Shown in pieces: positions 50,240 to 62,402 of a DNA stretch of 64,000 nt. The notes under the pieces were generated by a model. It saw only the letters and a list, made by a program, of their open reading frames with translations, made no database searches and was not told the origin of the DNA. The stretch lies in contig CBDBOV010000003.1 in NCBI GenBank assembly GCA_965208575.1, forward strand, positions 64,001-128,000. Direction: 5' to 3'. This stretch comes from Spirochaetia bacterium. GTDB taxonomy: Bacteria; Spirochaetota; Spirochaetia; SZUA-6; Bin103. The stretch's first letter is position 1; each line of letters opens with the position of its first letter. Position numbers and translations under genes: made by a program.

Positions 50240-50574
50240 TCGAATACGACGAACAGCCGGCCGGCGCTCGCGGGGCGGCGGCCGACGCGCGTCGCATCCA
50301 GCGCCTGTGCGCCCGCATCGCGGCGGATATCGAACGGGCGGCTGTCGCGCGGCAGGAGCAGGCCGGCGGAGACCGGGAGCCGCCCGCCGGCGCAGCCGAT
50401 TAGCGCGTCAGGACGCGGTTGCGTTCCGCGCTGCGCATGCGGCATGACGTGGTCGCCGGACGGAGCGAAAGACATGCTCGCCGAGAATTGCCTGTTCGGA
50501 CGGTCCGCCCGCCTGGCCGCCTCGGGCCGTTTGACGGTGCCCTCCTCAGCTGCTACAGTATCTCCGATTAGGGC

Positions 50575-50777
50575 CCTCCGCGGGCCGTGCGCTCGGCCTT
50601 GAACACCGAAATCCCCGCAAAAAGGAGGTGCAGTTCGCGGCCCGAGTTCATGACGCTCATGCCGGGTGCGTGACGACCTGAGATTGCCGTCGCTGTTTGG
50701 CCGCCTGCGCTGCGGGCGCGAGAGTGCGCAGGGAACGGCAACTCGCTCAAGCACTCTCAGAATCTGGAGAGTTCAGT
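50575..50777 (+). promoter_or_regulatory. 3' half of conserved structured leader (copy C)
   Basis: Homologous to about 58440-58685; several complementary segments. Confidence 0.65.
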
Positions 50778-52560
50778 ATGAATCATCCGAGAATTGCACA
50801 CACCTTGGTGTTTGTGCTCGTGCTCAGCTTGGCCGCAACCGGCCTCTGGGCGGCCGCGGAGAGCGAGGAGCCGGCCGCGGCGGTGGAGAAGGAGATGGTG
50901 CTCGACCCATCCACCGGCGAGATGGTGGAGGCGCCACGCTACGGTGGGACCATCACCTACGGCCGGCCCAACCATGGGGAGCATACCGATGCCTGGTACA
51001 TCGGCGGCTGGGCGAGCCACTTCACCAGCGAGGTCCTCGAGAAGCTCGTCATCGGCGATTGGGCGATAGACCGGAGCGTGAACCACTTGCGCACCTACGA
51101 CCAGCCCTTTTCCATCAATCGAGGGGCGTTGGCGGAAAGCTGGGAAACGCCAGATGCGACCACGATGATCGCCCACATCCGACAGGGCGTTCACTGGCAC
51201 GACAAGGCACCGATGAACGGCAGGGAGCTGACCGCAAAAGATATCGAGTTCAACTATCATCGTCTCTATGGGATCGGCAGCGGCTTCACCGAATCGTGCC
51301 CCGTGTGTGGCGGCAAGGAAAAGAACCTCGAATCCATAACGGCCACTGACGATTGGACGGTGGTTTTCAAGCTGAAGCAGCCTGACCTTCTTGCCCTGGA
51401 CAAGTTCTTCGACCCCTGGGAGACCTTCATCCACGCGCCTGAGGTGATCAAGGAGCACGGCGACGTCAAGGACTGGCGGAACATGGTCGGCACCGGCCCC
51501 ATGGAGCTCACGGAGTATATCGATGCCACCTCCATGAAATGGACCAGGGTCCCCAACTACTGGGGGTTCGATGAGAAATTTCCCCAGAACCGCTTGCCCT
51601 ACGTCGACGAGATCAACGCCGTCATCATGACCGATATGGCGGCGCGGCTGGCGGCCCTGCGGTCGGGGAAGATTGACATACTCGGGACGGCCGGCGACTC
51701 TCAAATCAGGTCGGTCGACCAGTTGAAGAGCCTGCAGGAGAAGAATCCCGAGATCAACGTGTGGACCTTCGATTTTCGGGCCGGCACAGGTTTCGTGTTC
51801 AACAACGTCAACAACCCGCCCTTTGATGACATCCGCGTGCGCCGGGCCATGCAGATGGCGCTGGATCTGGAGACGATTCAATGCGACCTTCTTCGGCGGT
51901 TTGGGAGATCCGACTCCGAACGGATTGTGGGCCAACTCCAAGGAGGGGGTTGGCACGCCCTTCGACCAGTGGACCGAAGAGATCAAGCCATACTACCGGT
52001 ATGACCCGGAAGGAGCGAAGCAATTGCTGGCCGATGCGGGCTATCCCGATGGCTTCAACACCCGTTTGGACTACGACGTGCGCGCCGATACGAGCTACGC
52101 GGAATTGATCGCGAACTACTGGCGTGAGATTGGCGTGGAAGTCGAGATCCACACGGCGGACGCTACGCAAACCACGGTGTTCTGGCGAGACAATACTGCG
52201 GAAGGAATGATCGGTGGGACCACGGCCATGACGTATAGCGCTGCAGGCCTGGAGAACTGGATCACTGGGGGAACGTGGAACGGGTCCGCGGGCAGCGACC
52301 CGGAACTTGATGAACTCTGGGGGCGTGCCGAGTTTGCGGCCACGATCGACGAGCAGAACGCGGCGTTCAAAAGGATGAACATGCGCCTCTCGGAACTGCA
52401 TTGGGTCCTTACTGGTCCCGTGTCCCCGCAATTCAACGTCGCCCAACCGTGGATCAAGGGGTATAACGGCGAGGTCGCGATCAGCATAAATGGCCAATAC
52501 TCGACGGTCTTGACCCGCGTATGGGTCGACCAGGATCTGAAGCGGGAGATGGGCTTCTAA
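50778..52560 (+). pseudogene. Family 5 solute-binding protein with single +1 frameshift near 51879
   Basis: ORF1 ...LDLETI continues in ORF2 as NATFFGG; paralogue reads LDMETINETY; could be a sequencing error. Confidence 0.85.
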
Positions 52561-52592
52561 GGAGTCGCTACGGGAGTCTCCTGCTCGCGAAG

Positions 52593-52632
52593 AAGGGGCG
52601 CTGGGATCCTCGCCGGTCCCGGCGCCCTTTTT
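52593..52632 (+). terminator. Intercistronic hairpin/terminator after SBP
   Basis: AAGGGGCGCTGGGATC...GGTCCCGGCGCCCTTTTT. Confidence 0.7.
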
Positions 52633-52643
52633 GAAAGGACGAC

Positions 52644-53603
52644 ATGAGAGCGTATATCATCCGCCGCGTTCTGCTTCTCATACCCACCTTCCTGCTGCTG
52701 TCGATCCTGGTGTTCCTGTCCCTGCGTTTCCTCCCGGGCGACGCCATAGATGCGTTGGCGGCGCAAATGGCGAGTTTCATGGACCCCGATATAGACCGTG
52801 AAAAGCTGGAGCGGATGTTGGGACTGGACCGGCCGATCTACGTGCAGTATGGACGCTGGCTGGGGGGTATCTTCCTGCACGGCACGCTGGGCGATTCCCT
52901 GCTGGGCGCCTGGCGGGTCGAGGAGAAGATACTCGCCAGATTACCGGCAACCGTCCAACTGGGAGTGATGGCGATCGTGATCGGTCTGCTGATCGGGCTG
53001 CCGGTCGGCATCTACTCGGCGATGCGCCGCAATACGGCCGCCGACTACGTCGGTCGGTCGGTCGCCATCATCGGCCTGGCGACCCCCAACTTCTGGCTGG
53101 CGACCCTGATCCTGACCTTTCCCGCCATCTGGTGGGCGTGGTCGCCACCGTTGACGCTGGTGCCGTTCCGCGACGATCCGCTGGGCAGCATCGGCGTGTT
53201 CATCGTGCCGAGCCTGATTCTGGGCACCTACCTGGCCGCGGCCACGATGCGGATGACGCGCACCATGATGCTGGAGGTACTCCGGCAGGACTACGTCAGG
53301 ACCGCCTGGTCCAAGGGTCTGCAGGAGCGGGTCGTGATCGTCAGACACGCGATCAAGAATGCCCTGATCCCGGTCGTGACGCTGATCGGCTTGCAAATGC
53401 CGATCCTGATCGGCGGCTCGGTGATCATGGAGAGCATCTTCAGTCTGCCGGGGCTCGGCCGCCTCATGCTGGACGCGCTCAACGACCGCGACTACCCGGT
53501 GGTCTCCGGCGTAAACCTGACGTTCGCCGCCTCGGTAATGGCAATCAACCTGGTGGTCGACCTGATCTATGCCGTTCTGGATCCGCGGGTCGGGTACCGC
53601 TGA
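52644..53603 (+). CDS. Opp/Dpp-type ABC permease B
   Basis: MRAYIIRR, TPNFWL, QDYVRTAWSKGL. Confidence 0.93.
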   Translation: MRAYIIRRVLLLIPTFLLLSILVFLSLRFLPGDAIDALAAQMASFMDPDIDREKLERMLGLDRPIYVQYGRWLGGIFLHGTLGDSLLGAWRVEEKILARLPATVQLGVMAIVIGLLIGLPVGIYSAMRRNTAADYVGRSVAIIGLATPNFWLATLILTFPAIWWAWSPPLTLVPFRDDPLGSIGVFIVPSLILGTYLAAATMRMTRTMMLEVLRQDYVRTAWSKGLQERVVIVRHAIKNALIPVVTLIGLQMPILIGGSVIMESIFSLPGLGRLMLDALNDRDYPVVSGVNLTFAASVMAINLVVDLIYAVLDPRVGYR

Positions 53604-54535
53604 TGGCACTGATGGGTGAGCGAGTGACGGAAGAACAAGCAGCCGAACGGGCAGCCGCCGCGTCGCCGAAGCGAGCGGAGCGACGGTTGTTCCTGGGCGG
53701 GTTGCCGCGACGATTCATCAAGGAGCAGCCGCTGGGTGCGTTCGGCGGCGCGGTGCTGCTGGCGCTGGTACTGGTCAGCATCTTCGCACCGTACCTGGCG
53801 GGGCACGATCCCAACCAGATGACGCTGGCCGACCGGCTGCAGGGTCCGTCGGGCGAGTATCTCCTGGGCACCGATCAGCTCGGGCGCGACTTCCTGAGCC
53901 GCCTGATCTACGGGGCGCGCATCTCGTTGTTCGTCGGCTTGGCGGCGACCACGTTGCACGTGGTGGTTGCGGTGCTGATCGGCGGCAGCGCGGGGTTCAT
54001 CGGCGGCAAGCTGGACCTGTTGGTGCAGCGGTTCGTCGATGCCTGGATGTCGTTCCCGGGCCTGCTGCTGTTGCTCACCATCATGTCGATCGCCGGGCAG
54101 GGGCTGCTGCAGGTGATCGTGATTCTGGGGGTGTCGTCCGGCATCACCAACTCGCGGGTGGTGCGCGGCGCGGTGATCGGCATCAAGGAGAACGACTACT
54201 TCCAGGCGGCGCAGGCCATTGGCGAGCGCACTTTCGGGACCCTGCTGCGGCACGTGCTGCCCAACATCATGGCGCCGATCATCGTGATCTTCTCGATCAC
54301 CATCGGCGGCATCATCGTGGCGGAGGCTTCCTTGAGCTTCTTGGGGTTCGGTCTGCCGCCCGGGGTGCCGAGCTGGGGCGGGATGCTGAGCCGGGAGGGC
54401 CGCCAGTACATGGAGATGGCGCCGCGGCTGGCGATCTGGCCGGGCCTGTGCCTGACCATCGTCGTGTACAGCATCAACATGTTCGGCGACGCCCTGCGCG
54501 ACCTGCTCGACCCCCGCCTGCGCGGCAGCGTCTGA
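53603..54535 (+). CDS. Opp/Dpp-type ABC permease C
   Basis: LGTDQLGRD, RHVLPN, GDALRDLLDPRLRGSV; TGATG coupling. Confidence 0.92.
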   Translation: MALMGERVTEEQAAERAAAASPKRAERRLFLGGLPRRFIKEQPLGAFGGAVLLALVLVSIFAPYLAGHDPNQMTLADRLQGPSGEYLLGTDQLGRDFLSRLIYGARISLFVGLAATTLHVVVAVLIGGSAGFIGGKLDLLVQRFVDAWMSFPGLLLLLTIMSIAGQGLLQVIVILGVSSGITNSRVVRGAVIGIKENDYFQAAQAIGERTFGTLLRHVLPNIMAPIIVIFSITIGGIIVAEASLSFLGFGLPPGVPSWGGMLSREGRQYMEMAPRLAIWPGLCLTIVVYSINMFGDALRDLLDPRLRGSV

Positions 54536-54552
54536 CCGTCGCCGCTGCTTCG

Positions 54553-55074
54553 CTACAGAGCGATGACCTCGCCGGGGCGCATATCGGGCTTCAGATCCCA
54601 ATACCACGAACCGTCGGCCAGCTCCACGCGGCGTGAGCCAAGTTCGCGCAGCCGCAGCCGCAGGCTCGCCAGCTTGCGCGCCAGTACGTGGCGCGGATCA
54701 AACAGAATGATGCCGTGGTCGCAGATGTCCAGCATGAGCCAGGGGGTATCGGCCAGCTCCGTCTCGGTACGGAACACCGCGTACGGCTCGGTCGGAATCT
54801 TGCGCGCCTACAACTCACCTACGAGCGGATGGTCCCGCAACTGCAGCGCGATCTGCAGGAATGCCTCGAACACGGCAGCACGCGGGCCGCGATGGACCAC
54901 GAACAGGTCCACGTCGCTCGCCGCCTGTGCCTGTCCGCGGGCCACCGAGCCATAGAGGGCTACCGCCGACAAGCGATCCCTGAGCCGGTCGCGCACCCTG
55001 GCCAGGTACAGGTCCAGAAGCGGCTTCAGTTCGAGGTACCCCTGACCCCGATGCTGCTGGCGGAGCGACGACAC
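54553..55074 (-). pseudogene. Minimal nucleotidyltransferase (MNT) with one in-frame TAG at 54808-54810
   Basis: LYGSVARG.....SDVDL motif; two ORFs in the same frame ending WYWDLKPD..PGEVIAL. Confidence 0.8.
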
Positions 55075-55185
55075 GTCGCAATCAGAATACCACGAACCAG
55101 GCGGCGATGGGGATCCGGTACCTGCAACTACCGCGGGCCGGCAGCAACGTCGCCTTCAAGGGCACTGGCTTTCAGCGCGGCCCGG

Positions 55186-55291
55186 TTGAACTTGGGAGAC
55201 GGGGCAGGTACTGTCGGGCGCGGACGCGCATACGCGAGCGGAAGGCGGCGGCCGAGTCGCCGCTTGGCTGCCGGGCTGACCTGATGAGGCC
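55186..55291 (+). pseudogene. Scar of a second sterol desaturase copy (promoter joined to last codons)
   Basis: Matches 33780-33814 then 34796-34865, joined at CGGGCG. Confidence 0.85.
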
Positions 55292-55322
55292 CTGAAGAAG
55301 CGGCTCGGGCTCGACGGAAAGG

Positions 55323-56441
55323 TCACTTCAACGCCAGCTCGATGGCGCCACACTCCAGCAGCGAGTCACCCGTGGCCCGGAGCGTGTCCAGCACGGGATG
55401 AGTCTTCAGCCCCAGTTCGCGAATGGCCTTGGTGCACTTGGCGTGCCAGAAGTCCGGCGTGTCCGGCGTCTGCCAGTCGCCGCCCACCGCGACGTCGGGA
55501 TACAGCCCGCTGAGCGCATCGCGCATCTGCCGCGCGGTGAGCTCCCCGGACTCGTCGGTGGCGCCCAGGATGTAGCGGGATCCATTGGTGGCGACGCTGC
55601 TGGTTGCCATCAGGCGCTGCGCCTGGCCGATGTCGCGCACGTCGATCACGTTCCACAGGAAGCCGGGCGCCGCGCCCTCCAGCGACGCGATGGCCGGCCC
55701 GAAGCCGAGGCCGATCCAGTTCCCGGCGGCGTCTTGCCCGCTTTGCCCGGACAGCGCCTGGCCGATCTTCTTCTGCCACACGTTGTTCTGCGTCCTGTTG
55801 AGCACCGGACCGAGCACGTGGCTGGGCATGTTGGAGACCACGTCGATGCCGGTCTCCTCGCCCCAGGCGTAGCCATACTTCTCGGCATCCACCTTGCCCT
55901 TGGCGTAGGAGGCCTTCTCGACGTTCCACAGGTGCGCGGCGGTGCCGTGGCCACCCCAGTCCTGCTCGGTGAACTCGTAGCCGCTGGGGTCGGCTCCACC
56001 CCGCCAGCCGCTCCACACCGCCGCGCACGACGAGGTGTACACCACCCGCTTCACGCTGCCTGCCTTGCGGCACGACTCCAGCACGCCCCTGGTGCCGTCC
56101 ATGATGGCGTCGTAGGTGCGTTGCGCGCTGCCTTCTCCGTAGGCGGCATCGGTATGCAGGTCGGCGGCGACGTGAAACACCGCCGAGCAGCCGGCACACA
56201 CCTCGTCGTAGGCGCCGCCGGTGGCCTGCAGCAGGTCGGCCGCGAAGATCTCGACGCTGCCCGCGCCGAGGTGGTTCATGGCCAGCAGGAAGTCGGTCTT
56301 GTCCCGGCGGCTGGCGTCGCGCACGCTGGCGCGTACCGCGTAGCCCGCCTCGACCAGGTTCTTGACGACGTGCGATCCGATGTAGCCGGAGGCGCCGGTA
56401 ACGGCGACCGGCCCGTCGGTGGGTCCAGTGACAGGTGGCAT
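55323..56441 (-). CDS. NAD-dependent epimerase/dehydratase (dihydroflavonol reductase-like SDR)
   Basis: VTGASGYIG, VFHVAA, VYTSS, YAKGK, IDVRD. Confidence 0.9.
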   Translation of the reverse strand: MPPVTGPTDGPVAVTGASGYIGSHVVKNLVEAGYAVRASVRDASRRDKTDFLLAMNHLGAGSVEIFAADLLQATGGAYDEVCAGCSAVFHVAADLHTDAAYGEGSAQRTYDAIMDGTRGVLESCRKAGSVKRVVYTSSCAAVWSGWRGGADPSGYEFTEQDWGGHGTAAHLWNVEKASYAKGKVDAEKYGYAWGEETGIDVVSNMPSHVLGPVLNRTQNNVWQKKIGQALSGQSGQDAAGNWIGLGFGPAIASLEGAAPGFLWNVIDVRDIGQAQRLMATSSVATNGSRYILGATDESGELTARQMRDALSGLYPDVAVGGDWQTPDTPDFWHAKCTKAIRELGLKTHPVLDTLRATGDSLLECGAIELALK

Positions 56442-56466
56442 GGGTGGATGGTGTGCCTTGGGTGAG

Positions 56467-56532
56467 CGCCAAAGTCAAGCGGCGTCTCCGGCGCGGGCGA
56501 CACAGGAGATGGCGCCGTGGCCAATCTGATCA
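56467..56532. repeat. ~66-bp dispersed element, copy 3
   Basis: Collinear with 47605-47670; directly upstream of the epimerase. Confidence 0.75.
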
Positions 56533-56621
56533 ATATGATCGATGGTGGATGTCGAATCCAAATCACACTCTCTTTCGACGTACCATAATATCGATACTCT
56601 ATAGAGGGAGTGAACGTAGAT

Positions 56622-57950
56622 ATGGATATTCCGTACACTGAACGTCACGGTGAGCGTGTTCTCGAACGGTTCATTGTGGACCGCGTGCCGCACAAGCCGG
56701 TGCTCCTCGTGGAGGGCGCTCGCCAAGTGGGGAAGACGACTCTCGTGGAGCATGTCCTGGCGGGCTCGGCCAAGCCAACCGTCCGGATCAACCTGGAGCG
56801 TGACTCGCTGGATCGCATGGCGTTCGACGAATGCCGAGACTTCGCCGCGTTCCAGGACCTGCTGCTCGACCGCCACCGGTTTCGCCCGAACGCCGGCCAG
56901 GTCCTGTTCATCGACGAAGCGCAGGAGAGCCGCAGGCTCGGCGGGTTCGTGCGCTTCATGAAGGAAGAGTGGCCGCGCGCCACGGTAATTCTCTCGGGTT
57001 CGACGCTGAGGCGCCTGTTTCGCCCGCACACTCGCTACCCGGTGGGCCGCGTTCGCCGCCTGGTGCTGGGCCCGTTTTCCTTCTCCGAGTTCCTGCGGGC
57101 GGTGGGGCAGAGCCACCTGGCCGACCAGGTCCTCGGTGACGACACGCAGATCAGCGACCAGCGGCACGACCATCTGCTTGCCCGGTTCGACCAGTTTATC
57201 GCAGTGGGCGGGCTGCCCGCGGTAGTGCAGGCATACGTGGCGGGCGAGGACCACGCCCTGGTGCGCCGCCAGATCGCGGCCGACTACGAGCAGGACTTCA
57301 TACGGCTGTTCGGTGAGGAGAGCGTCGACATCGCCACCGCGTGCCTGCGCAGCGTCGCCAATTTCGTGGGCGGCGTGTCCAAGAACACCTCGGTGGTGCC
57401 GGCACCGGGTAGCCGCGTGAACGCCAGGATCAACGAGGTGTTCGCGCGCCTGGAGAGCTGGCACCTGGTCCTGCGCTCCGATCAACGGGGGTCGAGTACA
57501 TACGCCAGTCATGCCTACCTGCCCAAGCGCTACCTGTTCGACACCGGTGTGCTGCGCGAGCTGCGCGAGTCGGCCGTGCCGGCCATCAGCGCGGTGCACA
57601 CGATGGCGGCGGCCGCGCGCACTCCGCTCGGCGCAATCATCGAGAACCAGGCCGCAATCGAGCTGGCGCGCGGCGGGCGGCCGCTGGCCGGCTGGAAACG
57701 CTCTCCGGCGGGGTCGGAGATCGACTTCATCGGCAAGACCGGTACGGCGGCGGTCCCGGTCGAGTGCAAGGCGAGCCTGTCCGTGAACCTCCGGCACATG
57801 CGCGGCCTGATTGCCTATCTGCGCGCTCATGGCCAGCAGCGCGGGTACATCGCGAGCCTGGCGCCCTACGGGGAAACCGGCGTGGACGGCGCAAAGATCG
57901 TGAACCTGCCCGCCTATCTCCTGGAGCGGCTTGCGCGGGGAGTGCCGTGA
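56622..57950 (+). CDS. AAA_14 ATPase with DUF4143 / PD-(D/E)XK-like C-terminus
   Basis: GARQVGKT, FIDEAQ, LSGS, GGLP, KRYLFDTG, EIDFI...VECK. Confidence 0.87.
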   Translation: MDIPYTERHGERVLERFIVDRVPHKPVLLVEGARQVGKTTLVEHVLAGSAKPTVRINLERDSLDRMAFDECRDFAAFQDLLLDRHRFRPNAGQVLFIDEAQESRRLGGFVRFMKEEWPRATVILSGSTLRRLFRPHTRYPVGRVRRLVLGPFSFSEFLRAVGQSHLADQVLGDDTQISDQRHDHLLARFDQFIAVGGLPAVVQAYVAGEDHALVRRQIAADYEQDFIRLFGEESVDIATACLRSVANFVGGVSKNTSVVPAPGSRVNARINEVFARLESWHLVLRSDQRGSSTYASHAYLPKRYLFDTGVLRELRESAVPAISAVHTMAAAARTPLGAIIENQAAIELARGGRPLAGWKRSPAGSEIDFIGKTGTAAVPVECKASLSVNLRHMRGLIAYLRAHGQQRGYIASLAPYGETGVDGAKIVNLPAYLLERLARGVP

Positions 57951-57990
57951 GGGTTCTACCGCACCACAGCGCACTTTCGGGCGGCGGGCC

Positions 57991-58034
57991 GGGTCGGCGT
58001 GGCATCAGCGCCGTCGGCGGAGTTGCCGCCGACC
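57991..58034 (-). pseudogene. Remnant of one 72-bp repeat unit of the HNH gene
   Basis: TCGGCGTGGCATCAGCGCCGTCG is shared with 38303-38325. Confidence 0.6.
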
Positions 58035-58122
58035 GAAGAGCAGCTTCCCGGTGGGCCGCGCACCCGCCTGGTGCCGGGTCCGTTTTCCTTGCTGGCCTCG
58101 GTGCTCTCTGGCGCGAACCTCA

Positions 58123-58685
58123 TTGACGGCATTGACGGAAGTTGACGGGTAGTCGCGCGCGTGCAACACTGTCGATGGTGGGATTACGAGCACATGGGCC
58201 CAACGGCGAGAGATCCCTTGCAGCGCGGTTGCCGGTTGAAGATCACGCGACCGGTGCGCTTCCCCCGCCACGGGCGACAGCACCTGACTATCCATTCATC
58301 CGAGAAATAACTACCAACCGCCGCGGCCAACCGGGCGGCGTTCGCCGCACCTGCGTGTACGCCCGTCCGGCCCTGCGACAGCACTCCGTCCAATTCCAGG
58401 TCATTCCGTCAACTACCGGGATCGCCGCCACCCTTGCGCGTGCCTCGCGGCCGCGCGCTCGGCGTCGAGTACCGGAATTCCGCGCAACGGGGAGGTGCAA
58501 GCTGATACTCAAAGAACTGCACCATGCGCGCGGCCCGCGAGAGTTCACGACGCTCATGCCGCGCGCGTGACCACCTGAGGTTGCCCTCTCGGCTTGGCCG
58601 CCTGCGTTGCGGGCGCGAGAGTGGGCAGGGAACGGCAACTCGCACCGGAAGCACTCTCACAAACTCACATATGGGAGAGATCAGT
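58123..58685 (+). promoter_or_regulatory. Complete module promoter plus ~510-nt leader (copy B)
   Basis: TTGACG(58142)-17 bp-AACACT; 5' half matches copy A, 3' half matches copy C. Confidence 0.65.
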
Positions 58686-60494
58686 ATGAATCTTCCAAGA
58701 ATTGTACACGCCTTCGTGGTTGTGCTCGTGTTCGCCCTGACCGCGACCGGCGTCTGGGCCAGCGGCGAGAGCGACCAGCCGGCCGCGGCGGCCGAGAAGG
58801 AAATGGTGCTCGACCCCCGAACCGGGGAGATGGTGGAGGCGCCACGATATGGCGGGACATTGACCTATGCCACCGTCATGCCCGAGACGGGGGCCGCCGA
58901 CGAGGCGTTGAACGGTCGGTCCGGTCTCTTGCTCGTCCAAGGCGTGCTCGAGAAACCATCGATAGCGAACTGGGCTCTGCCTGCAGACGAATGGGGCAGG
59001 AGGATGGTCAGCTCCGACACCCCGCTCTGGAGTCTCACGGGATCGCTGGCGGAGAGCTGGGAAACACCCGACGACACGACCATCGTTCTCAACATCCGCC
59101 AGGGCGTTCACTGGCATGACAAGCCGCCGATGAACGGCCGGGAGCTGACTGCCGATGACATCGCATACAACTATCACCGCTATCTCGGTCTGGGCAGCGG
59201 CTTCACGGAGGCTGCCCCGGGAGCGGGCCCGCTGGGCGCAGTGGGAGTCGAATCGGTAACGGCCACCGACCAATGGACGGTCGTGATCGAGCTGGAGCGG
59301 CCCAACCCTGTCGCGCTGTTTACGCTCCTCCAGTGGTACACGTTCGACATCCATCCCCCGGAGGTGATCGAGGAACACGGCAACATCAACGACTGGAGGA
59401 ACCTGGTCGGCACGGGGCCGTTCATGCTGACCGACTATGTCGAAGGATCGTCCGTCACCTGGCTCAAGAATCCCAACTACTGGGGCTTCGACGAAAAGTA
59501 CCCGGACAACCGGTTGCCCTACATTGACGAGCTGGTAGCGCTGATCATGCGAGAAGAGGCCACCCGCACGGCGGCACTGCGCTCCGGCAAGCTCGACTAC
59601 AGGGGGTATGCCGGGGAAGCCCAATTGAGGACCATAGACTTGGCGGAAAGTCTCGCCAAGAGCAACCCCGAAATAACGCAGTGGCCGTACTATGTGCGGT
59701 CGGAGTTCGCTTTCGGGTTCAACACCAGCAACCCGCCGTTCGACGACATCAGGGTGCGCAAGGCACTGCAGATGGCGCTGGACATGGAGACGATCAACGA
59801 AACCTACCTCGGAGGGAGGGGAGATATCACGCCTCATGGGAAGGTCGGAACAGCTCAGAAGGGGCTCTTCGTCCCGTTCGAGGAGTGGCCGGACGAGGTG
59901 AAGAAGGGCCACAGGTACGATCCCGAAGGTGCCGAGAAGCTCCTCGATGAGGCCGGCTACCCGCGCGGCGCCGACGGCACGAGATTCAAGACCTCCGTTG
60001 TCCTTCACGCAAATACTGTTCTCAGCTACTATGAATTGGCGGCTGCATACTGGAGCGAGCTTGGCATTGATCTGGAGATTCAGGTGCTGTCTACAGGGGC
60101 CGAGTTCGGCGCGGTCCTACGTGAAGGCAGATTCGAAGCTCTTATAGGCACGATTTCGGGCGCCAACTACTTCAATGAGAATCATGCAACGGGATGGCGT
60201 TCAGGCACTTCAGGTAACGCCGCGGTCGTCAGCGATCCTCACATGGACGCCTTGATTGATGCCCTGAAGGCGAGCACGAGTCTCGACGAGTACCACGGGT
60301 GGTTCCGCGAGATAGATATGTACGCGGTGGAGCAACATTGGAATATCTGGGGTCCCGTTTCCCCGATGTATCATGTCAGCCAGCCGTGGTTGAAGGGGTA
60401 TAACGGCGAAGCGACCATGGGGAATTGGCAAATGAGCGACCTGTACGCCCGTGTCTGGATTGACCAGGAGCTGAGGGCAGAACTGGTAAATTAG
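58686..60494 (+). CDS. Family 5 (Opp/Dpp-type) solute-binding protein
   Basis: Signal peptide, APRYGG, LAESWETPD, RQGVHWH, GTGPF, NPNYWG, PPFDDIRVR. Confidence 0.93.
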   Translation: MNLPRIVHAFVVVLVFALTATGVWASGESDQPAAAAEKEMVLDPRTGEMVEAPRYGGTLTYATVMPETGAADEALNGRSGLLLVQGVLEKPSIANWALPADEWGRRMVSSDTPLWSLTGSLAESWETPDDTTIVLNIRQGVHWHDKPPMNGRELTADDIAYNYHRYLGLGSGFTEAAPGAGPLGAVGVESVTATDQWTVVIELERPNPVALFTLLQWYTFDIHPPEVIEEHGNINDWRNLVGTGPFMLTDYVEGSSVTWLKNPNYWGFDEKYPDNRLPYIDELVALIMREEATRTAALRSGKLDYRGYAGEAQLRTIDLAESLAKSNPEITQWPYYVRSEFAFGFNTSNPPFDDIRVRKALQMALDMETINETYLGGRGDITPHGKVGTAQKGLFVPFEEWPDEVKKGHRYDPEGAEKLLDEAGYPRGADGTRFKTSVVLHANTVLSYYELAAAYWSELGIDLEIQVLSTGAEFGAVLREGRFEALIGTISGANYFNENHATGWRSGTSGNAAVVSDPHMDALIDALKASTSLDEYHGWFREIDMYAVEQHWNIWGPVSPMYHVSQPWLKGYNGEATMGNWQMSDLYARVWIDQELRAELVN

Positions 60495-60577: not shown

Positions 60578-61537
60578 ATGAGAGCCTACATCATCCGCCG
60601 GCTCCTGCTGATGATTCCGACCCTGTTCATAGTGACCATCGTGACGTTTCTCTCGGTGCGCTTCATTCCCGGCGATGCAATAGACGCAATGACGGTTCAA
60701 CTGGAAATGATGGGGTTTGTGCCGGACCGTGAAGCTCTCGTGAAACAGCTTGGATTGGACGTGCCGATCCACGTGCAGTATGGACGCTGGATCGGAGGTA
60801 TCCTGTTGCGCGGCACGCTTGGAAATTCACTCTGGGGGACCGATGTTTCGATAGAGCAGAGAATATCGGCCAGATTGCCGGTGACCATCGAGCTGGGTGT
60901 TCTGGCAATCCTGATCGGGCTGGTGATCGCCGTGCCGGTCGGCATCTACTCGGCGGTGCGCCGTAATTCGGCCGCCGACTACGTGGGGCGCGCCGCCGCC
61001 GTCATCGGCCTGGCAACGCCCAACTTCTGGCTGGCCCTGATGGTGATTATTTACCCGGCACTCTGGTGGGGCTGGTCGCCGCCGATGCGGCTGGTCTCTT
61101 TCACCCAAGACCCGCTCGGCAATCTCGCGGTGTTCATCGTTCCGAGCCTGATTCTGGGCACGGCTCTTGCTGCCGGCACCATGCGGCTGACGCGTACCAT
61201 GATGCTGGAGGTGCTGAGGCAGGACTATATCAGGACGGCGTGGTCCAAGGGCCTCAAGGAGCGATTCGTCATCATGAGACACGCCATCAAGAACGCCCTG
61301 ATCCCGGTGGTTACCCTGATCGGCCTGCAGTTGCCTATCCTGGTTGGTGGCTCCGTTATCATGGAGAACATCTTCAACCTGCCCGGATTGGGTCGCCTCA
61401 TGGTGTTGGCGCTCGAAGAGAGAGACTACCCGGTGGTGTCCGGGGTAAACCTGTTTTTCGCAACCGCGGTGGTGTGCTTCAATTTGATGATAGACCTGAT
61501 TTATCCTCTGTTCGACCCCCGGGTCCGCTATGCGTGA
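60578..61537 (+). CDS. Opp/Dpp-type ABC permease B
   Basis: MRAYIIRR, TPNFWL, QDYIRTAWSKGL. Confidence 0.93.
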   Translation: MRAYIIRRLLLMIPTLFIVTIVTFLSVRFIPGDAIDAMTVQLEMMGFVPDREALVKQLGLDVPIHVQYGRWIGGILLRGTLGNSLWGTDVSIEQRISARLPVTIELGVLAILIGLVIAVPVGIYSAVRRNSAADYVGRAAAVIGLATPNFWLALMVIIYPALWWGWSPPMRLVSFTQDPLGNLAVFIVPSLILGTALAAGTMRLTRTMMLEVLRQDYIRTAWSKGLKERFVIMRHAIKNALIPVVTLIGLQLPILVGGSVIMENIFNLPGLGRLMVLALEERDYPVVSGVNLFFATAVVCFNLMIDLIYPLFDPRVRYA

Positions 61538-62402
61538 AGCGACCAGGAGGCGTACCGCGCTGGCTGATTTCTTTGCCAGGATGGTCAGGGAGCAGCCTCT
61601 CGGTGTCGGCTGCGGTATTGTCGTATTGCTATTGATTCTCGTGGCTATATTTGCCGATGTTCTGGCCCCCTATGGCTTCCTTGAAGTGCACCTCAGGGAC
61701 AGACTGCAGGGCTCATCGGCCCAGTATCCGCTGGGCACCGACCAGTTGGGTCGGGACTTGTTGAGCCGGGTCATCTACGGGGCCCGGCTGTCGATAGCGG
61801 TCGGTCTGGCGGCCACCAGTATCAATGTCGTGGTGGCGCTCCTGATCGGCGGCACGTCCGGATTCCTCGGCGGCAAGTTCGACCTGGCCGTGCAGAGATT
61901 CGTCGATGCCTGGATGGCGTTCCCGGGATTGTTGATCCTGTTGACGATAATGTCGCTGGTCGGGCGCGGCGTAACGCAGATAATAGTCGTCCTGGGCATA
62001 GCCGGCGGCATCGGCGGCTCGCGAGTGGTGCGAGGCGCGGTCGTCGGCATAAAGGAGAATCTCTACTTTCAGGCCGCGGCGGCGATTGGCGCCTCGAAAT
62101 GGCGAGCGTTCGTGCGCCATGTTCTGCCCAATATCATGCCTGTCGCAATCATCATATTCAGCATCAACATCGGCGGGGTGATGATATCCGAGGCGTCTCT
62201 GAGCTTCCTCGGGTTTGGACTGCCTCCCACCGTTCCAAGCTGGGGAGGCTTGCTCAGCCGGGAAGGACGCGAGTACATGGAGCGGGCGCCGTGGCTGGCC
62301 GCCTGGCCAGGGCTCTGCCTGACCATCACCGTGTTCAGTCTGAACATGTTCGGCGACGCGCTGCGCGACCTGCTCGACCCCCGCCTGCGCGGCAGCGTCT
62401 GA
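61530..62402 (+). CDS. Opp/Dpp-type ABC permease C
   Basis: LGTDQLGRD, RHVLPN, GDALRDLLDPRLRGSV. Confidence 0.93.
   Translation: MREATRRRTALADFFARMVREQPLGVGCGIVVLLLILVAIFADVLAPYGFLEVHLRDRLQGSSAQYPLGTDQLGRDLLSRVIYGARLSIAVGLAATSINVVVALLIGGTSGFLGGKFDLAVQRFVDAWMAFPGLLILLTIMSLVGRGVTQIIVVLGIAGGIGGSRVVRGAVVGIKENLYFQAAAAIGASKWRAFVRHVLPNIMPVAIIIFSINIGGVMISEASLSFLGFGLPPTVPSWGGLLSREGREYMERAPWLAAWPGLCLTITVFSLNMFGDALRDLLDPRLRGSV

Follow-up and report, generated by a model that had tools for sequence, protein, structure and literature searches.

The SAM-II, preQ1-II/III and NAD+-II riboswitches are pseudoknots that gate the ribosome-binding site. The ribosomal protein S15 and S4 leaders and the phage T4 gene 32 leader are pseudoknot translational operators that are bound by protein, and the trp, his, tnaC and ermC leaders are leader-peptide attenuators or nascent-peptide sensors. 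Here, we describe a leader that occurs twice in a window of 64,000 nucleotides (nt), the whole stretch of DNA that was analysed (contig CBDBOV010000003.1, positions 64,001 to 128,000, of a Spirochaetia bacterium, assembly GCA_965208575.1). The two copies are members of a lineage-specific family of predicted structured 5' leader RNAs for genes of family-5 ATP-binding cassette (ABC) substrate-binding proteins. This family is new and lies outside the known RNA families. In kind, it is a cis-regulatory leader that contains an upstream open reading frame (uORF) and a pseudoknot.

Like the SAM-II, preQ1-II/III and NAD+-II riboswitches, the family has an H-type pseudoknot in a 5' leader directly before a gene for transport or metabolism, and control is presumed to be translational. 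It differs from them in that it has no Rfam match, its Shine-Dalgarno sequence lies 6-15 nt outside the pseudoknot, it carries a mini-uORF, it is found in more than 80 copies per genome and a conserved unpaired pocket is not seen by eye. The S15, S4 and gene 32 operators also have a pseudoknot beside an unstructured ribosome-binding site, and in them the pseudoknot controls initiation. Those operators are single-copy and autoregulatory, whereas the spirochaete leader is multi-copy and no candidate binding protein was identified. As in the trp, his, tnaC and ermC leaders, a conserved short leader peptide ends at a stop within or next to a stable stem, and the position of a ribosome could thus remodel the leader. 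Unlike them, the family has no runs of regulatory codons and no terminator/antiterminator pair, and many of its members carry a bare start-stop.

Related elements have been described in other bacteria. Start-stop elements inside the E. coli genes yecJ and hslR are reported to have an effect of ~16% (bioRxiv 10.1101/520783), and upstream ribosome-binding sites in Sinorhizobium meliloti are reported to act by coupling or by occlusion, the latter needing close sites (PMC13285730). Such elements have a Shine-Dalgarno sequence, a start and an immediate or early stop, as in the spirochaete family; they are bound by ribosomes and act on a main ORF close by, with no useful peptide made. The spirochaete upstream site differs from that of S. 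meliloti in that ~100-190 nt and a pseudoknot separate it from the main start, and the spirochaete uORFs lie in leaders rather than inside genes as in yecJ and hslR. In the B12 leaders of Mycobacterium tuberculosis, a riboswitch is reported to interact with uORF translation (PMC11260477). Both systems join a structured leader RNA to a uORF, which is translated in M. tuberculosis. There, a known riboswitch class controls the uORF, while the spirochaete uORF precedes an unclassified pseudoknot.

A leader family upstream of substrate-binding protein genes

The genome that contains the window (6.5 Mb, 67% G+C, 6 contigs, 95% complete) holds ~160 SBP_bac_5-like tblastn clusters, an unusually large expansion of one binding-protein family. 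When copy 1 of the leader was compared with this genome by BLAST, dozens of matches to its ~50-nt core were found. A profile search gave 57 full-length copies of the window type, referred to here as the main class, and a few fragments. Each main-class copy lies ~85 nt before the ATG of a binding protein of ~600 amino acids with a conserved signal-anchor N-terminus, and 56 of the ~160 clusters carry such a leader. A divergent leader with the same core was found on other paralogues, both in this genome and in metagenome-assembled genomes (MAGs) labelled Spirochaetia or Spirochaetaceae. With a profile of the divergent leaders, 25 more copies were found in the same genome, 24 of which end at most 35 nt before a binding-protein start. 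The sole exception (L105), which has an intact pseudoknot core, stands before a truncated gene remnant. The binding proteins behind the more than 80 leaders of this genome are only ~45-55% identical.

The leaders are confined to one genus. Main-class DNA matched 7 of 10 other genomes of the genus, and a covariance model of the divergent core matched 6 of 10, with at least 43 copies in some of them, so that several hundred copies exist in the eight genomes with the leader. In these relatives, 25 of 26 model matches end 5-36 nt before the start of a binding-protein homologue. The model matched none of 13 genomes of the sister genus and none of 77 genomes of other families (90 outside the genus), and the element is absent from the homologous binding-protein genes in low-G+C genomes and in Dehalococcoidia metagenome genomes. 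An intergenic repeat like REP or MITE elements was ruled out by the single orientation and the position directly upstream of binding-protein starts (24/25 divergent copies, 56 main-class copies and 25/26 copies in relatives). Together with the alignments given below, these data show that the family exists and is tied to binding-protein genes in one orientation, and that its predicted pseudoknot is backed by covariation.

The sequence-only reading of the window, made before this analysis, had described a leader before transporter genes for binding proteins (SBPs), and could not match it to a known riboswitch class. The genes belong to SBP_bac_5, and a check against the Rfam covariance models also left the leaders without a match. 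At the gathering threshold, Rfam 15 had no match in the whole window. Nothing relevant was found at E ≤ 10 on either window leader, and 14 loci drawn from the main and the divergent class gave no leader match at E ≤ 1. Word searches of the open literature, in which sequence is not searchable, did not find a description of the element.

The leaders share a pseudoknot

The sequence-only reading had noticed in both copies an outer stem that encloses a CGCCTGC/GCGGGCG hairpin and a GAGAGTG segment, a CACTCTC segment complementary to GAGAGTG, and a ribosome-binding site before the ATG. All of these parts were found where it had placed them (Table 1). It had overlooked a conserved uORF with a strong Shine-Dalgarno sequence, a 12-bp stem (H1) and the decay of copy 1. 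The full element also exceeds the coordinates that it gave, with conservation reaching ~90-160 nt further upstream. In the family as a whole, the paired segments follow the order P1 5' strand, optional P2, GAGAGYR, P1 3' strand, variable loop and YRCUCUC. The helices cross and their complementarity is kept through sequence change, as is characteristic of an H-type pseudoknot.

Three alignments were used to examine the fold: A3, a MAFFT alignment of 37 divergent leaders; A4, a full-leader alignment of 27 main-class leaders; and A5, a covariance-model alignment of 69 matches (61 distinct) from the loci of G000, G001, G003 and G005-G008 and from named MAG records. The model behind A5 was built from A3 with the nested helices only. 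Cells of the proposed helices were paired in 86.9% of cases in A3 (32-44% when slid), 89.9% in A5 (at most 45.6%) and 90.9% in A4 (at most 49.5%). Double changes were seen in 18 of 27 pairs in A3, compared to 7.5 ± 1.8 in shuffles (0 of 500 reached this count), in 22 of 27 pairs in A5, compared to 10.2 ± 1.8, and in 9 of 56 pairs in A4, compared to 3.9 ± 1.4; the copies are paralogues with shared ancestry, and these shuffle controls ignore relatedness and overstate the support. The covariation score in A5 was 0.218 vs 0.123. Covariation across gathered homologous leaders was a check that the sequence-only reading had named, and the double changes in A5 supply it.

P1 has 12 pairs in A5, which are 89.7% paired and of which 11 show double changes, P1 and P2 having been aligned there by a model that contains them. 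The pseudoknot helix has 8 pairs, 5 of them with double changes. Its first seven pairs are 96.2% paired and the eighth 83.9%, and the 96.2% was reached even though this helix was left out of the model that aligned A5. One of its two variable pairs is UA in 37 copies, CG in 16 and UG in 3, and the next is GC in 24, AU in 17 and GU in 6. Gap-free offsets define the helix as GAGAG/CUCUC plus exactly two pairs: the first inner pair forms in 53 of 62 copies and the second in 51 of 62, compared to 6 of 62 for the next position. The frequent G-U pairs point to an RNA read from the sense strand and not to a DNA palindrome. The helix between GAGAGTG and CACTCTC that had been proposed from the window is borne out. 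GAGAG/CUCUC itself is strictly conserved in sequence, while P1 covaries freely in A5. The P2 hairpin is 98.9% paired in the 27 main-class leaders; it is missing in at least seven divergent copies and lies on either side of the GAGAG strand (by eye, A3). Between the pseudoknot and the Shine-Dalgarno sequence of the binding-protein gene there is an A-rich, unstructured spacer of 6-15 nt.

Both window copies belong to a subclass of seven members with a long outer stem (UUGCC/GGCAA) and a weak inner P1. Their upstream regions have a mean column identity of 81% in a pairwise alignment. A covariance model built from the divergent copies alone matches both, with 31.1 bits for copy 1 and 27.2 bits for copy 2 (58578-58661).

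Two other readings of the core were rejected. A DNA operator or promoter made of TTGACTC and the hairpin was ruled out by G-U pairs that are possible on a single strand only and by poor spacing to a -10 element (by eye). Protein coding of the core, either on the opposite strand or in frame, was ruled out by non-triplet indels and compensatory changes (by eye).

Selection on the leader was also seen in its identity. For 51 main-class genes (1275 pairs), the median pairwise identity was 0.714 in the 215-nt leader, 0.746 in the first 120 coding nt and 0.588 in the rest of the gene. With the fold and the placement, we consider it very probable that the leader is a genuine cis-acting RNA, structured and under selection.

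Two natural variants at G000:C3:713708 and C6:964084 are main-class leaders that have the uORF, H1 and P2, and in which the entire segment from GAGAG to CUCUC is deleted. The main class also has a small hairpin that spans ~20 nt before and including the ATG, with the Shine-Dalgarno sequence in the loop and the ATG in the stem (CAUACG...CGUAUG). This hairpin is 77.4% paired in the 27 leaders and has one compensatory variant, CAUAGG/CCUAUG.

Most leaders carry a short upstream ORF

Leaders of the main and window classes have a GGAGGUG site and, 5-7 nt beyond it, a short ORF. The predicted product of this ORF is exactly MILKEPHARAA in 15 of 57 main-class copies, and most others have close variants. 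The uORF of copy 2 is homologous to it; the CTG start there is weak and the stop lies six bases before P1. Codon variation in the K-E-P part is almost wholly at the third position (Lys, AAA 53 and AAG 8; Glu, GAA 49, GAG 11 and GAC 1; Pro, CCG 46, CCA 6, CCT 5 and CCC 4), and this count is biased, as the pattern admits only Lys, Glu/Asp and Pro and excluded 8 of 69 copies, at least two of which have amino-acid replacements there. The codon usage shows that part of the predicted uORF is under coding-like constraint. The main-class uORF ends, with its final codons and its stop, inside the 5' arm of H1, a 12-bp GC stem that is 97.1% paired across the 27 leaders and is also predicted by RNAalifold.

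Across the pseudoknot family, a Shine-Dalgarno sequence with a start codon is present in 46 of 61 distinct leaders, including 16 bare start-stops and 13 ORFs of three codons. Other uORFs of the family end in ...PTGYD or ...SPYD. The uORFs range from 1 to 22 codons and their Shine-Dalgarno sequences are near-perfect, so that by spacing, start and prompt stop they have the sequence features of a start-stop or mini-uORF element. In 22 of the 46 leaders with a uORF, the stop lies 4-17 nt before P1, which is within the reach of a terminating ribosome.

Scans of three leaders revealed no intrinsic terminator on the + strand, which makes translational control more likely than classical attenuation. 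A classical leader-peptide attenuator was also ruled out by the uORFs themselves, which are MILKEPHARAA, start-stops or ORFs of 3-8 codons without repeated codons. Fusion of the uORF to the binding protein by readthrough or frameshifting was ruled out, since the nearest upstream in-frame stop lies within the leader in 47 of 51 main-class copies and its place varies.

A scan of the window found a promoter-like site before copy 1, a consensus match (Table 1), and none before copy 2. In the main class, no sigma-70-like site recurs at a set distance before the uORF (43 of 49 leaders), most best scores being below 9 of 12. Contigs from sponge metatranscriptomes (at least 90% likeness) cover the uORF region and the core, and one contig of 152 nt bridges 58594-58741, from the core into the coding sequence. 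They give a weak hint that transcription begins upstream of the structure; these contigs are assembled, come mostly from paralogues or relatives and may include carried-over DNA, starts, ends and levels cannot be read from them, and parts that they leave uncovered carry no weight as evidence.

Variation in the uORF region was seen at two further sets of loci. The neighbouring paralogous leaders L122 and L123 (G000:C5:238190-238596 and 244780-245186) differ by extra tandem units of ~22 nt in this region. Homologous binding-protein genes of an unrelated genome (L037-L098; OZ242383.1, CBDBHR01...) have AT-rich upstream regions with tandemly repeated mini-ORFs, each with its own Shine-Dalgarno sequence, and the pseudoknot core is absent from them. 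Leaders rich in uORFs may be recurrent in this family of binding-protein genes.

A possible translational gate

The reading that we favour, tentatively and at somewhat less than even confidence, is that the pseudoknot is gated by ribosomes and serves as a translational gate that sets access to the start of the binding-protein gene, with a net effect of either sign. A ribosome on the mini-uORF, or terminating at it, would cover or melt the base of P1 (H1 in the main class), and occupancy of the uORF and folding of the pseudoknot would therefore be mutually exclusive. The folded pseudoknot would tie up CUCUC, the only strongly pyrimidine-rich stretch just before the ribosome-binding site, and the downstream site would stay open. 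In the unfolded leader, CUCUC or other GC-rich segments would mask the ribosome-binding site. Expression of the whole set of transporter genes would then track ribosome or initiation capacity, or anything that stabilizes the pseudoknot.

A switch between the pseudoknot and pairing of CTCTC with the ribosome-binding site was already part of the sequence-only reading. CUCUC and GGAGAG match cleanly over 5 bp in the window subclass and one further subclass. The sites of the main class are GGAGU, GGAGG or GGAAG, with which only a weak pairing that includes a G-U is possible. Even the clean match may be no more than the trivial complementarity that every run of pyrimidines has to a Shine-Dalgarno sequence.

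Several points weigh against the gate, in addition to the relatedness of the copies, the model used for P1 and P2 and the bias in the codon count that were given above. The main class is too uniform to show much covariation (its 9 double-changed pairs among 56), and it is compatible with all the proposed helices. The folding energies of the window leaders are no better than those of shuffles (z = 0.25, -0.38, 0.30 and 1.68), so the two copies on their own prove nothing. By the rule used, 15 of 61 distinct leaders have no uORF, and the uORF peptide differs between classes without conservation across them. The main-class stop lies ~60-70 nt from the pseudoknot, and at this distance coupling would need H1 and the GAGUCA/UGACUC stem. 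When a ribosome footprint at the uORF stop was masked in nested thermodynamic models of 4 main-class leaders, the downstream helices were unchanged, so that no switch is predicted there. Lastly, a transcription start before the structure, the translation of the uORF and the regulatory effect are all putative.

A broader version of the gate is doubtful. It would be a regulon-wide device of a new class, in which a uORF that abuts the pseudoknot reads free-ribosome or initiation capacity, or an unknown global ligand, and sets at least 80 binding-protein genes in a sponge symbiont. If this is true, an uncultured genus of spirochaetes, probably sponge-associated, has an exceptionally expanded family of nutrient-binding proteins of which half stand behind one conserved RNA device, and few cis-regulatory RNAs would be repeated as often within one bacterial genome. 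The device would also provide a natural series of start-stops and mini-uORFs at defined distances from a pseudoknot, a geometry that suggests a clear job; reports of bacterial start-stops to date come mainly from inside E. coli genes, where the effects are small. The element could then explain how uptake systems are coordinated in such symbionts. The hundreds of natural variants are a ready mutational series for both the fold and the mechanism.

Alternative explanations

Another possible explanation is a ligand riboswitch, which we regard as unlikely and as less likely than the translational gate. Here, the pseudoknot would be an aptamer, most plausibly for a global signal such as a second messenger and not for the substrate of each transporter, and the ligand would stabilize the pseudoknot and alter access to the ribosome-binding site. 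A compact pseudoknot that is backed by covariation and lies 6-15 nt before a ribosome-binding site fits this explanation, and GAGAG/CUCUC is kept far more strictly than pairing alone needs. The number of copies could be accommodated too, since second-messenger riboswitches are multi-copy within a genome, and with no known family matching the leader would form a new class. Nearly all conserved bases lie within helices, and a conserved unpaired pocket common to all classes is not seen (by eye, A2, A3 and A5). Neither the P1 bulge nor the loop that joins P1 to CUCUC is constant in sequence or length, and P2 is optional. In addition, the more than 80 copies precede diverged binding proteins, the element is confined to a single genus and the conserved uORF is given no role. 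Of the riboswitch-like leader in the sequence-only reading, the structured sense-strand leader stands, and its identity as a ligand riboswitch is weakened by the copy number per genome and the lack of a shared unpaired pocket by eye.

The strict conservation of GAGAG/CUCUC next to a freely covarying P1 could also reflect recognition of the pseudoknot by a factor that acts in trans. This factor, either an RNA-binding protein or a small RNA that pairs with GAGAG or CUCUC, would repress or activate the whole transporter set, in the manner of the ribosomal-protein and T4 gene 32 operators. The unstructured A-rich spacer before the ribosome-binding site is consistent with such an operator, and a common leader on one large set of genes resembles a regulon. 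We consider it quite improbable: no candidate for such a factor emerged, a search of the 95% complete genome for CsrA (PF02599) gave no match, and the GGA motifs that mark CsrA sites are not kept from class to class. The uORF would again be left unexplained.

About equally improbable is an element for stability or processing. A ribosome held at the upstream Shine-Dalgarno sequence, together with the pseudoknot, would protect the message so that the first gene out-yields the permeases, and no switching would be involved. Binding proteins are usually required in excess over permeases. The thermodynamic models, which give independent modules and not a switch, agree with this explanation, as does a near-perfect Shine-Dalgarno sequence with a start-stop or mini-ORF, no useful peptide being possible in 16 of 61 leaders. 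Such elements block RNase J, a 5'-exonuclease, in Bacillus, but RNase J (TIGR00649) had no match in the 95% complete genome. Simple stem-loops would be enough for protection, and the coding conservation of K-E-P in the main class suggests more than mere occupancy.

Likeness that stems from a recent duplication of paralogue 5' ends, or from gene conversion between them, with no function of its own, would suit an element limited to one genus whose first 120 coding nt are as conserved as the leader (0.746 vs 0.714), but it is very improbable given compensatory changes in 22 of 27 pairs, a fold kept between classes with ~45-50% identical proteins and across several genomes of the genus, a median leader identity (0.71) too low for ongoing homogenization, and damage to gene and leader that coincides (copy 1 has a frameshifted gene and a lost uORF start, and L105 a truncated gene with an intact pseudoknot core).

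The window copies and neighbouring features

The features of both copies are listed in Table 1. The proteins of the two copies are only 55% identical, and both are members of SBP_bac_5 (PF00496), with 225.1 and 155.5 bits compared to a cut-off of 32.4. Their nearest solved relatives are peptide, opine and nickel binders (E ~1e-23 or weaker). Copy 1 has lost the uORF start together with the 5' arm of H1, a deletion that appears as a gap in the alignment with copy 2. With its frameshifted gene and a leader that lacks the uORF start, copy 1 looks like a decaying locus. The frameshift is either that of a pseudogene in decay or an assembly error.

Table 1. Positions of leader parts and genes in the window
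Feature	Copy	Position	Strand	Sequence	Remarks
Promoter-like site upstream of leader	1	50531..50559	+	TTGACG-17-TACAGT	Consensus match only
Remnant uORF Shine-Dalgarno	1	50624..50630	+	GGAGGTG	Alignment gap; start codon not found
Pseudoknot core as a whole	1	50680..50758	+		Covariance-model match 50681-50761
Outer stem P1, 5' strand	1	50680-50689	+	GAG-A-TTGCCG	Sequence reading
P2 hairpin	1	50702-50718	+	CGCCTGC/GCGGGCG
Pseudoknot 5' strand	1	50720-50726	+	GAGAGTG (RNA GAGAGUG)
Outer stem P1, 3' strand	1	50736-50744	+	CGGCAACTC
Pseudoknot 3' strand	1	50752-50758	+	CACTCTC (RNA CACUCUC)
Shine-Dalgarno of binding-protein gene	1	50766-50771	+	GGAGAG	ATG at 50778
Binding-protein gene	1	50778-52560	+		Frame from 50778 stops at 52004; homology resumes in next frame to 52560
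Strong uORF Shine-Dalgarno	2	58490..58497	+	GGGAGGTG	GGAGGTG-type sites before uORF in most copies
uORF	2	58502..58570	+	LILKELHHARGPREFTTLMPRA	CTG start; 22 codons; TGA stop 58568-58570
Stem H1	2	58523-58534 with 58559-58570	+		12 bp, one G-U; encloses 3' part of uORF, ends on stop codon
Outer stem P1, 5' strand	2	58577-58585	+	GAG-G-TTGCC (RNA GAG-G-UUGCC)
P2 hairpin	2	58599-58615	+	CGCCUGC-GUU-GCGGGCG
Pseudoknot 5' strand	2	58617-58623	+	GAGAGTG (RNA GAGAGUG)
Outer stem P1, 3' strand	2	58634-58641	+	GGCAACTC (RNA GGCAACUC)
Pseudoknot 3' strand	2	58652-58658	+	CACTCTC (RNA CACUCUC)
Shine-Dalgarno of binding-protein gene	2	58673-58679	+	GGGAGAG	ATG at 58686
Family-5 ABC substrate-binding protein gene	2	58686..60494	+		602 amino acids; Pfam PF00496, E = 1.9e-66
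Two permease genes 3' of binding-protein gene	2	60578-61537 and 61530-62402			Match PF00528

Three minor observations were made outside the window copies. Just upstream of a main-class leader, on the minus strand of L008 (1190-1366), there is a sub-threshold match to RF02005 (group II intron D1-D4) with 30.1 bits, compared to a gathering threshold of 49 (E = 1.5e-5). A hairpin with a P2-like GC-GUU-GC top (CCGGCGUUGCCGG) recurs further upstream in many leaders of different classes (for example L050, L099 and L107). Finally, in the genome that contains the window, an unrelated third conserved leader stands before another subfamily of the same binding proteins (for example at G000:C6:487045-536153 and the S7 loci L052, L089, L092, L096, L100 and L101), and it has small hairpins, CCGGAGUUUCCGG being one of them, with a GAGGAGGAG ribosome-binding site after them.

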